A stretch of 64,000 bases of DNA from Anaerolineae bacterium (GCA_027021705.1 JALUTT010000056.1:1-64000), one strand, 5' to 3'. Positions 1,344-59,388 are shown, counted from the first letter of the stretch. The notes: generated from the letters alone by a model not told the origin. Numbers and translations are program-made.

Positions 1344-2653
1344 GGACTGCGTCGGTCCGCCGTTTCCTCTTGCCGGTGGTCACCTTGCTCCTTGCCCTGA
1401 TCGCCCCCCGCCTGAGGCCGAGCGCGGCCCAGACCCTCGCGCCCATCCTGGTGCTGGGGCCACTGGTCCAGATGGACGCCACCGGCGGCCTGCGCATCGT
1501 CTGGTGGACGGATCGGCCCGGCAGAGCGGAGGTGCAACTGGGCGTGGATGGGGCCACCACCGTGGCGGCGGAGAGCTGGGAGCGCTGGGCAGAGGCGCCG
1601 TCCCCCTTGGACCACTTCTGGCAGCATGTTGCCCCCCTTCCCTCCCTCCCCGCCGGCACCGCCGTCCCTTACCGCCTCCTGATGGACGGGCAGGCTTTGC
1701 CCGCCGGTCCCTTCACCCTGCGCGTGCCCCCGGACCGCCCTCCCCTGCGGCTGGCCATCGTCGGCGACTACGGTTCCGGCCTGCCGGCCGAACAGGCGGT
1801 CCGCGACCTGATCGCCGCCCAGCAGCCCGACCTGATCCTCACCACCGGTGACAATGCCTACCCCCGGGGGCGTTACGAGGAGTTCCACCGCTACGTCTTC
1901 GCCGTCTACGGCGATCTGATGGCCCAGGTGCCCTTTATGCCCGCTATCGGCAACCACGACGACATCACCGGACACGCGACGCCCTACCGGGAGCTCTTCG
2001 TGCTGCCGGAGAACGGCTGGCGGCCAGAGGAGCGGGAGCGCTACTACAGCTTCGATGTGGCCAACGCCCACGTCGTGGTGCTGGACAGCACCGACGGGCT
2101 GGCGGCCATCAGCGATGCGGCGGAGGATGATATGGCCGACTGGCTGGCCGCCGACCTGGCAGCGACCGACAAACCCTGGCGCATTATCCTCTTCCATCAC
2201 CCGCCCTACTCGGCCGGCGTCCACGGCAGCCACAGCCTGGCCCGCCAGCGGCTCACACCGGTGCTGGAGGCTGGGGGCGTCCAATGGGTCTTCAACGGCC
2301 ACGAACACGACTACCAACGCACCTGCCCCATCCGCCAGGAGCGCTGCGTCGAGCCAGGGGCGGGGATCACCTACGTGATCACCGGAGGGGGTGGGGCCGG
2401 GCTACGCCCGACCGGCCAGGATTGGTTCACCCGCCGCGCCCTCAGCGTCCACCACGCCGCCTTCCTTACGCTGGACGACTGCCTGGCCCGCCTCACCGTG
2501 CGGGACCAGGAGGGCCAAGTGGTGGACCAGAACGTGGTCCTGCGGTGCCCCTTGGACTATCGTTTCTACCTGCCGTGGGTCTCCCAGGCAGCAGTGCAGA
2601 TCCGAGAGGTGCAGCAGCAAGTGCGTGACTGTCTGCTAAGCCTCTTCTCCTGA
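1340..2653 (+). CDS. exported metallophosphoesterase (purple acid phosphatase-like, N-terminal FN3-like domain)
   Basis: Signal peptide; GD, GDNAY, GNHD, HHP and GHEH metal-binding motifs. Confidence 0.9.
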   Translation: MRTASVRRFLLPVVTLLLALIAPRLRPSAAQTLAPILVLGPLVQMDATGGLRIVWWTDRPGRAEVQLGVDGATTVAAESWERWAEAPSPLDHFWQHVAPLPSLPAGTAVPYRLLMDGQALPAGPFTLRVPPDRPPLRLAIVGDYGSGLPAEQAVRDLIAAQQPDLILTTGDNAYPRGRYEEFHRYVFAVYGDLMAQVPFMPAIGNHDDITGHATPYRELFVLPENGWRPEERERYYSFDVANAHVVVLDSTDGLAAISDAAEDDMADWLAADLAATDKPWRIILFHHPPYSAGVHGSHSLARQRLTPVLEAGGVQWVFNGHEHDYQRTCPIRQERCVEPGAGITYVITGGGGAGLRPTGQDWFTRRALSVHHAAFLTLDDCLARLTVRDQEGQVVDQNVVLRCPLDYRFYLPWVSQAAVQIREVQQQVRDCLLSLFS

Positions 2654-2654
2654 G

Positions 2655-2683
2655 TTGGCAAGGTCGCCTGGAGAGGGTATAAT
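2655..2683 (+). promoter_or_regulatory. sigma70-type promoter
   Basis: TTGGCA-17 bp-TATAAT. Confidence 0.65.
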
Positions 2684-57363: not shown

Positions 57364-57474
57364 ATGCAACAGGCCCGCATTCTGTTTTGATCCTATAGGT
57401 TCGCACACAGCTATGAGCAGTGTGAGATAGAAGATGGGTGATGAAAGGCAGTAAGTACGTATGAGAGGTGAAAG

Positions 57475-59388
57475 ATGAAAAAGGGAAATGGTGAACGTGA
57501 TTGGCTAGGCTCTGGGAACAAGCTTCCCATTGGGGTTGGTGGATTGCTGGTGGTCTTCATCCTTGCAGTGGTGGTGTTCCTGCCTGGTCCCTCCACGGCT
57601 GCTCCGGCTGCCTTCCCTCCCGTTCAGGCGAACTTTCCCATCGCTTTGAACGGGGCTCGGGTGCAGGGCTCCTCCATCGCTCTGGGTGACTTGACCAACG
57701 ACGGCGTCCCCGAAATCGTGGTCGGTGGCCTTGACGGCAAGGTCCACGCCTACCGAGGAAATGGGACGAGGCTGTGGGAGTACGATACCGGCGATATGGC
57801 CATCGAGAGCAAGGCGGCCATCGGCGACATAGATGGAGACGGCTGGAACGAGGTCGTCGTCGGGGCGGGAAGCACCTTCACGCCCGACAGTCACGGCGGA
57901 CTCTACGTCCTGGAGCCCACAGGCAGCCTGCGCTGCGCCTTCCAGACCGGCGACTTCGACAACGATGGCTGGCGCGACGGCGTCTTCTCCTCGCCGGCCC
58001 TGGCCGATATTGACCAGAACGATAACGGCAAGCTGGAGATCATCTTCGGCGGCTGGGATGGCTACGTGCGCGTCCTCAACGACGACTGCTCCGTCGTCTG
58101 GCAGACCTTTGTGCGGGATACCGTCTGGTCTTCCCCGGCCATCGGCGATGTGGACCGAGATGGTCGTCCTGAGATCGTCATCGGTGTGGACGCTCACTAC
58201 GAGCCGGGCTTCGGTACCGAGGACGGCGGCATCCTGCACGTCTACAACCACGACGGCAGCGAACTGTCGGGCTTTCCCATCCAGATTGACGAAGTGATCT
58301 ACTCCTCACCGGCCTTGGGGGACATCAACGGCGACGGCTGGCTGGAGATCGTCGTGGGTACCGGCTACTGCTGGGCCAACCCCGCCTGCGCGCCCAACGG
58401 TCAGGTTCACCCCGGCGTGGGGCAGTACCTGAACGCCTGGGACCACAACGGGAACTACCTACCGGGGTGGCCCAAGGCCCTGAACGACACCTACGCCTTC
58501 GCCTCGCCGGCCCTGGCCGACCTGGACAACGATGAGAAGCCCGAAGTGATCGTGAACACCGCCGACGGCTACGTCCACGCCCTCAACGAAGATGGCAGCT
58601 ATGTACCCGGCTGGCCCGTCCTCCCCACCACACCGTCGGGACCGGGGAGCGTCGTCCACGTGCCCACCAACGCCTCCCCCGTGGCCGCCGACCTCGACGG
58701 CGATGGGTCCATCGAGGTCGTGCTGCCCTCCAACTGGGAGTTGGTGGTGTGGGACTCGGCAGGGAACCAACTCACCCGGGACAGCTTCCCATCCGAATCG
58801 GGGGACTGGGAACTGGTGACCGATTACACGGTCAGTGGGTCGGCGGCCGTCGGCGACATTGATGGGGACGGCGATACCGAAGTCGTCGTAGGGGGAGCCA
58901 TCAGCGGTGGGGAAACCGGTGCTCTCTACGTCTGGGACCTCGATGGAGCTCCCCCTGCCGACACCTCCTGGCCCACCTTCCGTAGGGACCGCCTGAACCA
59001 GGCCCGCTATCCGTTACCCGCCATCCTCACCGTCCGGCCTAACTCCTTCTTCCTTTTCCATCCCTATGGGAGCCTCGCCGATCTTACCACCTCCCTGTTG
59101 ATCGAGAACAGCGGGGATGGAACCATCACCTGGGATGCGGTGGCCAGCGACGCCCGAGTCTCCCTCTCGCCGACCAACGGTCAGGTCTCGCAGGACACCA
59201 CGCTGGTGCAGGTGACCATCTCCCTGGGGAGCAGCGTGATCACGGGCACCCACGACCTGGGCACCATCACCGTCACCGGCATCGCCAATGCAGGCAATGT
59301 CCAGAACAGCCCGACCACGGTACCCATCACCGTCTACGTGGGAAAGGTCTACCGCGCTTTCCTCCCCGTAGCCATACGAGGCCGGTAG
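57475..59388 (+). CDS. exported FG-GAP/VCBS repeat beta-propeller protein with C-terminal Ig-like domain
   Basis: Repeated SPA(L/I)GD(I/L)DxDGxxE(I/V)V units; terminal YRAFLPVAIRGR. Confidence 0.88.
   Translation: MKKGNGERDWLGSGNKLPIGVGGLLVVFILAVVVFLPGPSTAAPAAFPPVQANFPIALNGARVQGSSIALGDLTNDGVPEIVVGGLDGKVHAYRGNGTRLWEYDTGDMAIESKAAIGDIDGDGWNEVVVGAGSTFTPDSHGGLYVLEPTGSLRCAFQTGDFDNDGWRDGVFSSPALADIDQNDNGKLEIIFGGWDGYVRVLNDDCSVVWQTFVRDTVWSSPAIGDVDRDGRPEIVIGVDAHYEPGFGTEDGGILHVYNHDGSELSGFPIQIDEVIYSSPALGDINGDGWLEIVVGTGYCWANPACAPNGQVHPGVGQYLNAWDHNGNYLPGWPKALNDTYAFASPALADLDNDEKPEVIVNTADGYVHALNEDGSYVPGWPVLPTTPSGPGSVVHVPTNASPVAADLDGDGSIEVVLPSNWELVVWDSAGNQLTRDSFPSESGDWELVTDYTVSGSAAVGDIDGDGDTEVVVGGAISGGETGALYVWDLDGAPPADTSWPTFRRDRLNQARYPLPAILTVRPNSFFLFHPYGSLADLTTSLLIENSGDGTITWDAVASDARVSLSPTNGQVSQDTTLVQVTISLGSSVITGTHDLGTITVTGIANAGNVQNSPTTVPITVYVGKVYRAFLPVAIRGR

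Follow-up and report, generated by a model that had tools for sequence, protein, structure and literature searches.

The stretch of DNA analysed here (the window, 64,000 nucleotides from an Anaerolineae bacterium) is contig C56 of a 5.19-Mb, 66% G+C assembly, genome G000. Five of its genes had been said in an earlier note to encode exported proteins sharing a short Y/F-L-P peptide, read there as copies of one surface-sorting signal; the peptide is called the YLP-box below. All five peptides were found, identical in translation, at their coordinates, and an N-terminal hydrophobic signal is indeed present in each of the five open reading frames (ORFs). The sites are listed here with the Pfam character of each carrier and with the score of a matrix described below; lengths are in amino acids (aa).

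2558..2587 (+): atypical YLP-like element YRFYLPWVSQ, 28 residues before the end of P0001, a 437-aa metallophosphoesterase (gene 1340-2653, +); score 12.2.
15280..15309 (+): N-terminal YLP-box YRSFLPYVAR, about 20 residues after the twin-arginine translocation (Tat) signal of P0002, an unassigned 380-aa hydrolase-like protein (gene 15094-16236, +); score 10.7.
27821..27850 (+): internal YLP-box KYAYLPLIVK of P0003, a DUF11/CARDB stalk protein of 1667 aa (gene 23366-28369, +), located in the linker that joins its DUF11 stalk to its C-terminal CARDB domain; score 11.3.
45384..45413 (+): C-terminal YLP-box FDLFLPVLLR followed by the stop codon, in P0004, a CARDB-ended GH-like protein of 554 aa (gene 43752-45416, +); score 17.3.
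59350..59385 (+): C-terminal YLP-box YRAFLPVAIRGR followed by the stop codon, in P0005, an FG-GAP propeller protein of 637 aa (gene 57475-59388, +); score 17.1.
43905..43943 (+): second, N-terminal box-like stretch of P0004, PSSYAPVVVKNYP (the SSYAPVVVK copy); score only 7.6, not significant alone.

The Tat signal of P0002 matches TIGR01409 with 26 bits (cut-off 16.7). The boxes of P0004 and P0005 lie 7 and 9 residues from the protein end, behind a CARDB domain (residues 444-536) in the former and behind FG-GAP repeats and a BACON-like domain in the latter. Of the other three sites, one is N-terminal, one internal and one 28 residues short of the protein end, and their scores are not significant individually. 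The sites of P0002 and P0003 are nevertheless accepted because relatives back them: homologues of P0002 (see below) and, for P0003, two paralogues on contig C164 that share the box-then-CARDB layout and score 26.4 and 23.2. Ten close orthologues of P0001 retain C-x-x-Y-[YL]-[LV]-P-[WL] with, behind it, about 20 further residues that include Cys; homologues further removed end before it. From this comparison, the P0001 element is atypical, family-specific and doubtful as a YLP-box. In the N-terminal stretch of P0004 the invariant L is replaced by A.

The motif was then examined across G000, using 3717 genes predicted with a simple codon-bias caller, 3645 of them with a stop codon (start positions are approximate). 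Of these genes, 111 contain the core pattern [YFW]-L-P-h-h-h-[KRQNGH], as compared to 29.6 +/- 3.3 in shuffled sequences. Its concentration at the C-terminus is far stronger: 61 of the 3645 genes carry it within the last 14 residues, where about 1.0 is expected from the internal rate and 0.65 from 20 shuffles, and only 6 of 39672 unselected ORFs end in it. The 61 tails align as Y/H at position -3, R/Q/D at -2, V/I at -1, Y/F at 0, L at +1 (61/61), P at +2 (61/61), L/V at +3, V at +4 (50/61), L/V/M at +5 and R/K at +6 (56/61). Beyond +6 the proteins continue for 0, 1, 2, 3 or 4 residues (14, 14, 23, 8 and 2 tags, respectively). The tag, 7-11 residues long, can be summarised as [YH]-x-[VI]-[YF]-L-P-[LV]-V-x-[RK] plus 0-4 residues. 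A matrix made from the aligned tails yields 96 positions at a score of at least 12 (73 C-terminal, 17 internal and 6 N-terminal), versus 12 in one shuffle; at a score of at least 18 there are 70, versus none.

Enrichment of the motif in exported proteins, a check proposed in the earlier note, proved strong genome-wide: a signal-like N-terminus without a further helix is found in 69 of 84 tagged as opposed to 424 of 3459 untagged proteins (odds ratio 33, p = 2e-46). The 15 tagged proteins not scored as exported are mostly over-long start calls, proteins at contig ends and single-pass membrane proteins. Tagged proteins are long (median 950 aa versus 331), and none of 34 proteins combining a signal peptide with a C-terminal membrane helix has a YLP-box. 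About 90 proteins, some 2-3% of the genes of G000, bear the tag; they include Calx-beta, beta-helix, PKD, BNR, S8, C25 and DUF11 types, which elsewhere bear LPXTG, PEP-CTERM or type IX secretion system (T9SS) signals. Sortase-type signals (LPQTG, IPQTG, LLPVAG, LLPVSG or LPTAG, with a helix and a basic tail) are found in only about five G000 proteins (C3:65332-65871, C87:32371-32985, C164:35031-35912, C27:1181-2911 and C85:17143-17994). By these sequence counts the YLP-box clearly predominates among the tags in the predicted G000 secretome (about 90 versus about 5 sortase-type).

The tag is portable. When the 120 residues upstream of 73 C-terminal tags were compared, they fell into 42 groups unlinked by BLAST, among them DUF11-like domains, Calx-beta domains, beta-helix ends, thrombospondin-type repeats and a family of 92-108-aa proteins. 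This supports the idea of a portable tag, carried by exported proteins that have neither a lipobox nor LPXTG nor a C-terminal helix. In the small 92-108-aa family the box stands at the end of 18 of 18 members and the linker preceding it is variable, consisting in one member of a Pro/Thr run. The AlphaFold model of another carrier (mean predicted local distance difference test score, pLDDT, 91.2) has its last 22 residues, box included, as coil with pLDDT 62-67; a model of a small tagged protein, made from 18 sequences, had a mean pLDDT of 56, too low for use. Variable linker and coil tail in a confident model contradict the possibility, raised in the earlier note, that the motif is simply an integral strand of the adjacent domain. 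The YLP-box forms a flexible tail, or part of a linker, and lies outside the folded domains.

The proposal that the tag can be used N-terminally, internally or C-terminally likewise found support. Among the 120 listed homologues of P0002 (50-74% identical), 82 have a box scoring at least 8 at 20-95 residues from the annotated start, with the consensus D-L-D-H-H-[VI]-Y-L-P-[LF]-[VI]-S; many of the 38 without a box are N-terminal fragments. In G000 proteins with an internal or N-terminal box, the box falls outside the listed Pfam stretches in 13 of 14 cases, standing before CARDB (twice), LTD, MAM, NIDO, PPC, GHL10, CotH, S8, DUF362, FecR or Big_5 domains or after Big_7. The single exception lies inside a purple-acid-phosphatase N-domain match. 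Taken together, the YLP-box is a linear tag, about 10 residues in length, that some Chloroflexota use on Sec- or Tat-exported surface proteins and enzymes, most of them large and multidomain; very probably it is a sorting or retention tag of some kind.

Each of the 92-108-aa tagged proteins has a signal peptide as well as a twofold Y-x-L-x-G-T-x-G-Q-P / G-G-F-W motif. At C48:11404-13449, C48:23466-26891 and C83:22899-25301 (loci L003, L004 and L008) they adjoin large untagged secreted proteins, two of which, on C48 (970 and 1017 aa), have a Peptidase_S74 "chaperone of endosialidase" domain at their end. Such untagged fibre-like proteins may use the small tagged ones as adaptor subunits.

The motif itself proved to be catalogued already. 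NCBIfam holds two models, NF050076 ("sort_motif_YLP", 11 positions, curated cut-off 15 bits) and NF053834 ("ultrashort_CTERM", 10 positions, cut-off 10 bits), for a "YLP-box putative sorting motif-containing protein". Three small tagged G000 proteins match both over their last 10-11 residues, with 12.7-14.2 and 10.4-12.2 bits, respectively, and so reach the NF053834 cut-off. A six-frame search of G000 with NF050076 returned 68 matches at E<=10, of which 39 were marked as exceeding the cut-off, 5 of these only through summing with in-frame neighbours. The five window sites, submitted as pieces of 30-47 aa, matched no NCBIfam family at E<=10 and are absent from the six-frame list; they are too divergent to be picked up. 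The P0004 tail is one such divergent copy. Since the motif is catalogued, the finding as first stated is not new: of the description "uncharacterised, with no described mechanism", the second half stands and the first does not. A literature search found no paper on the YLP-box and nothing relevant for its peptide strings or for Chloroflexi sorting signals; as far as the searches show, its position-independent use and its link to a PorU-like peptidase, described next, are unpublished.

Distribution was followed with NF050076 at E<=0.3 over 401 genomes sampled from the phylum. At this threshold single matches are expected by chance, and scoring by hidden Markov model covers at most 23 candidates per genome, so that high counts saturate. 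The model was chosen because a strict DNA pattern, which gives 54 versus 0 in G000, under-counts lineages with I or K variants. Two genomes flagged as unpublished (G038, G227) enter the 401-genome tallies only. Matches were obtained in 107 of the 401 genomes. Rich users are few, comprising G000, families f14 (2/2) and f22 (25/25), some members of f59 and f38, and here and there a relative from the class to which G000 belongs. Families f29 (0/25), f21 (0/8), f26 (0/8) and f13 (0/6) are blank and f2 is mostly so (2/24, single matches). Six f20 genomes (G034, G046, G106, G142, G196 and G341; 2.0-2.8 Mb) have one match each, in an ORF of 920-983 aa; neither wider tag use nor a C25 peptidase was seen in them.

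Phylogenetic profiling for a co-occurring receptor or protease, as the earlier note had suggested, brought out a PorU-like peptidase of family C25 (PF01364). Full-length PF01364 matches (186-305 bits; 305 in G000) are present in 21 of 21 YLP-positive genomes and in none of 16 YLP-negative ones. Over the whole phylum sample, 54 of the 401 genomes match PF01364 at E<=1e-20, distributed as follows:

At least 4 YLP matches: 27 genomes with C25, 0 without.
At least 3 YLP matches: 33 genomes with C25, 5 without.
Fewer than 4 YLP matches: 27 genomes with C25, 347 without.

Fisher p-values overstate this association because related genomes are not independent, which is one reason for caution; for the same reason, more weight is given here to the count of lineages and to families of mixed composition. 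The 27 genomes with at least 4 matches span eight families (f1, f4, f7, f11, f14, f22, f38 and f59), and within f4 at least 2 YLP matches occur in 3 of 5 C25-positive and in 0 of 4 C25-negative genomes. Controls were run on the same 36-37 genomes (20-21 positive, 16 negative). Sortase is present in 20/20 positives and 10/16 negatives, and DUF11, a common cargo domain, in 21/21 and 10/16; neither is specific. An exported Lon_C-like neighbour is found in 10/21 positives and 0/16 negatives. Three other candidates for the reader of the tag were rejected: sortase, being present also in 10 of the 16 YLP-negative genomes; the Lon_C-like protein, present in only 10 of the 21 positives; and the neighbours of tagged genes in G000, where only response regulators, kinases, BTAD-AAA-TPR proteins and family-specific partners recur.

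The enzyme of G000 has the following layout:

C77:52274-55186: PorU-like peptidase, 971 aa; signal peptide, N-terminal domains, C-terminal C25 domain, then R-P-N-R-T-I-V-P-W-A-S-R and the box.

Its closest curated relative is PorU (NF033707), which it matches with 242 bits, well below the equivalog cut-off of 420; four Chloroflexota proteins score 169-250 bits. It is thus classed by its sequence as a relative of PorU and not as a member of NF033707. Profile comparison aligns its N-terminal and catalytic parts, about 700 residues, with PDB entry 6za2 (E 1e-56), and its catalytic part with gingipain R (7e-41). The predicted model adopts a gingipain fold, with template-modelling scores of 0.67-0.70 in Foldseek comparisons with RgpB and Kgp (E about 1e-19), and all 18 sequences compared have the catalytic His825 and Cys859. 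A full-length match, the catalytic His and Cys and the modelled gingipain fold all place the predicted partner enzyme in C25. Relatives number 237 in the public genome collection. The best 80 of them, taken as the orthologue set, are all from Chloroflexota (Anaerolineae/Anaerolineales, Thermoflexales, Ardenticatenaceae, Promineifilaceae, Leptofilum, Chloroflexia and Herpetosiphonaceae), and 73 of the 80 have a complete C-terminus. A YLP-like tail is present in 63 of these 73, in 51 cases at most 60 residues from the G-D-P motif that closes the catalytic domain.

A search of G000 for the T9SS C-terminal domain (CTD; PF18962) gave no match at E<=0.01, the control genomes giving only sub-threshold matches, so that the sensitivity of the search is unproven; SprA (PF14349) gave no match in any control genome and is uninformative on T9SS. 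Of the papers listed for PorU or gingipain together with Chloroflexota, the few looked at draw no link between them. In the window, a probable lipoprotein of 446 aa (2704-4041; lipobox L-A-A-C) has repeats near its N-terminus that match the CHU_C "type IX secretion signal" Pfam model (E 1.5e-8).

Tagged ORFs are dense near the peptidase gene. The flanks of the 80 orthologue loci contain 5.5 YLP-tagged ORFs per 100 kb, about four times the 1.4 counted genome-wide in G000. In family f22 the gene order is a YLP-tailed DUF11 protein, a DUF11 protein with LPXTG, helix and basic tail, and the C25 peptidase; this order was seen in 5 of 5 loci read (4 by BLAST, 2 of these Pfam-confirmed, and 1 by position and tail) and, by coordinates, in 7 more genomes. 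The window holds a protein related to the middle member of this set:

30485..31651 (+): 389-aa protein with a DUF11 match, LPVTG, membrane helix and RRR tail (a sortase-type substrate), no YLP-box.

Its gene lies 2 kb downstream of P0003, and it is the best G000 match to the f22 anchored DUF11 proteins (BLAST E 2e-13 to 9e-8), which makes it their G000 homologue.

Several other neighbourhoods deserve mention. Between the P0003 gene and this LPVTG-anchored DUF11 gene lies a cytoplasmic NERD and UvrD-like helicase gene (28506-30536). P0004 and P0005 are encoded within a polysaccharide locus (41557-57360), where P0004 is flanked by two TMEM260-like/PMT_2 glycosyltransferases (41557-43041 and 45413-47998), followed by a Wzt-type ATP-binding cassette ATPase and four glycosyltransferases. 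The large ORFs 55717-57360 and 59454-62021 have no Pfam match. Elsewhere in G000, large BTAD-AAA-TPR (SARP/MalT-like) regulators flank the densest tagged clusters (C47:10873-13941, C47:29963-33613 and C48:313-4179), and 7 of 15 members of a related TPR family adjoin tagged genes.

A mechanism can be proposed that starts from what is observed here: a tag enriched at C-termini, tied to export and independent of position, and a co-occurring peptidase that has an intact catalytic dyad and carries the tag itself. The YLP-box would serve as a signal for surface sorting or retention, and its reader, acting outside the cytoplasmic membrane, would be the PorU-like C25 cysteine peptidase. The enzyme, itself tagged, would recognise the box and cut there or close by; it may then, as PorU does in type IX secretion, hand the cargo to a surface acceptor, for which the sortase-anchored DUF11 stalk protein encoded beside the peptidase is a candidate. 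According to PMC4560394, PorU cleaves CTDs by means of Cys690, and T9SS cargo is transferred by sortase-like transpeptidation; PMC7332563 describes Chloroflexota as a phylum without a typical lipopolysaccharide outer membrane. We put the probability that the PorU-like enzyme reads or processes the YLP-box, much as PorU handles type IX cargo, at roughly 45%.

A number of observations weigh against this proposal. As to the chemistry, recognition, cleavage, the cleavage site and the acceptor are deduced indirectly. Cleavage after R/K cannot be obligatory because 14 of the 61 tags stop at the conserved R/K, and no conserved site was seen upstream of the box in the aligned tags. Boxes near the N-terminus fit badly with C-terminal transpeptidation and better with docking or release. 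Alignments of the S1 pocket to gingipain R, made from the single sequence and from the profile, differ by 2-3 residues and are ambiguous; since they disagree, no claim is made on S1 specificity. Because the enzyme is itself tagged, it may be just regular cargo, and in G000 its gene has unrelated neighbours. As to distribution, five genomes have at least 3 matches and no C25 call. One, G287 (a complete genome), has only chance matches; G331 and G012 have only a divergent or partial C25; and in G121 (97% complete) and G020 (95%), which have genuine C-terminal tags, C25 was not found. Conversely, the 27 C25-positive genomes with fewer than 4 YLP matches include 8 with none, and in C25-positive genomes without NF050076 matches NF053834 gave none in G148 and G166 and 4 weak matches in G250. 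That many C25-positive genomes have few or no YLP matches means that the family has other uses too. Genes next to a second PorU-like C25 subfamily (loci L025, L027, L030, L032, L035 and L040, in G223, G076, G210, G015, G148 and G250, respectively) encode a radical-SAM protein, a PqqD-like protein (about 100 aa), a protein of 280-300 aa and an S24/S26-like peptidase (about 170 aa); from its gene content this locus looks like a peptide-maturation cluster.

The main rival explanation keeps to the docking put forward in the earlier note: the box would be a short strand that binds a receptor in the wall, S-layer or sheath non-covalently, the peptidase being just one regular item of cargo. A tag that works N-terminally, internally and C-terminally suits binding better than C-terminal transpeptidation. 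Its hydrophobic positions alternate (-3, -1, +1, +3 and +5); such alternation resembles that of donor strands. The 14 tags with no residue after R/K and the tail on 63 of 73 peptidase orthologues are in line with this too. However, no receptor candidate emerged, the recurrent untagged neighbours being regulators and family-specific partners, and docking leaves unexplained why an intact PorU-like enzyme is present in 27 of 27 YLP-rich genomes versus 27 of the other 374. We regard docking alone as unlikely, if the strongest of the alternatives.

It seems improbable that the box is a processing site only, at which an extracellular protease trims pro-peptides or C-terminal pro-domains, with no anchoring role. 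Internal boxes do precede detachable end domains (CARDB, LTD, MAM, NIDO and PPC), N-terminal boxes are located where pro-peptides end, and the box ends in R/K, the residues after which gingipain-type C25 enzymes cut. Yet 73 of the 96 boxes lie at the extreme C-terminus with 0-4 residues beyond them, and therefore nothing worth removing, and the R/K at +6 is not retained in the N-terminal boxes of the P0002 family. Still less credible is an interfacial membrane anchor, in which 7-8 hydrophobic residues flanked by basic ones dip into the outer leaflet of the cytoplasmic membrane: the hydrophobic core, the R/K at +6 and the frequent R at -2 would suit it, but the invariance of L and P (61/61) and the strong conservation of the aromatic residue and of V at +4 argue for specific protein recognition rather than bulk hydrophobicity, and the tag is too short for a helix anchor. 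Nor is there much to recommend a variant sortase signal whose L-P is read by one of the two G000 sortases. L-P is common to the box and to LPXTG, and all 20 YLP-positive genomes have a sortase; but so do 10 of the 16 negatives, the box comes without T-G, membrane helix or basic tail, and G000 has separate classical LPxTG-type substrates, none of them YLP-tagged. That there is no signal at all, the box arising by chance or simply forming the final strand of the domain beside it, finds some footing in the three window sites too low-scoring individually and is dismissed in view of the 61 C-terminal copies where about one is expected, the 42 unrelated upstream contexts with variable linkers and the coil tail in a model of mean pLDDT 91.

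If the box is indeed read by the PorU-like enzyme, the two might form a Chloroflexota surface attachment system that operates without type IX secretion. An exported clan-CD transpeptidase would read a position-independent, helix-free signal of about 10 residues and fix dozens of enzymes and adhesins (or, at N-terminal boxes, release them), possibly onto a sortase-anchored DUF11 stalk. This fuller picture is offered tentatively, with the odds leaning against it. Sludge, sediments and mats abound in filamentous Chloroflexota, whose secreted proteins include many large hydrolases and adhesins and whose envelope architecture is debated. A candidate reader makes a catalogued, unexplained motif accessible to experiment. 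Were the proposal true, PorU-type sorting would be older than type IX secretion and more widespread, sortase and exosortase would be joined by a third form of sortase logic, and the YLP-box would be the shortest known sorting signal; a portable 10-residue tag could also be useful for surface display, if the link holds.

Of the systems already described, the NCBIfam YLP-box models concern the same motif; they are named for a C-terminal signal, whereas the box is here also kept N-terminally and internally. Type IX secretion resembles the proposed system in placing a C-terminal signal on many unrelated surface proteins and in its C25 enzyme, which is related over about 700 residues; the Chloroflexota enzyme itself bears a YLP-like tail (63/73), and PorU itself also has a CTD. 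The difference lies in the signal, 10 residues as opposed to a folded CTD of about 75 residues in T9SS, and in its occurrence also at N-termini. LPXTG/sortase anchoring shares a short L-P motif on exported surface proteins and coexists with the YLP-box in G000, but the box lacks T-G, the following helix and the basic tail, and sortase is not specific to YLP users. PEP-CTERM/exosortase and PGF-CTERM/archaeosortase are alike in using a lineage-restricted C-terminal tag on many unrelated exported proteins; a transmembrane helix is part of these and related tripartite signals, and the enzyme that reads them is embedded in the membrane, whereas only 0-4 residues follow the R/K of the YLP-box. Finally, in the assembly of type V pili of Bacteroidota, a gingipain cuts after Arg and strand exchange follows. 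The likeness here is one of analogy only: a C25 protease, a basic residue ending a strand-like segment, and strand elements at both N- and C-termini. The carriers of the YLP-box differ in being enzymes and adhesins of many folds, with N-terminal boxes that are followed by Pro-rich linkers and with no pilin groove.

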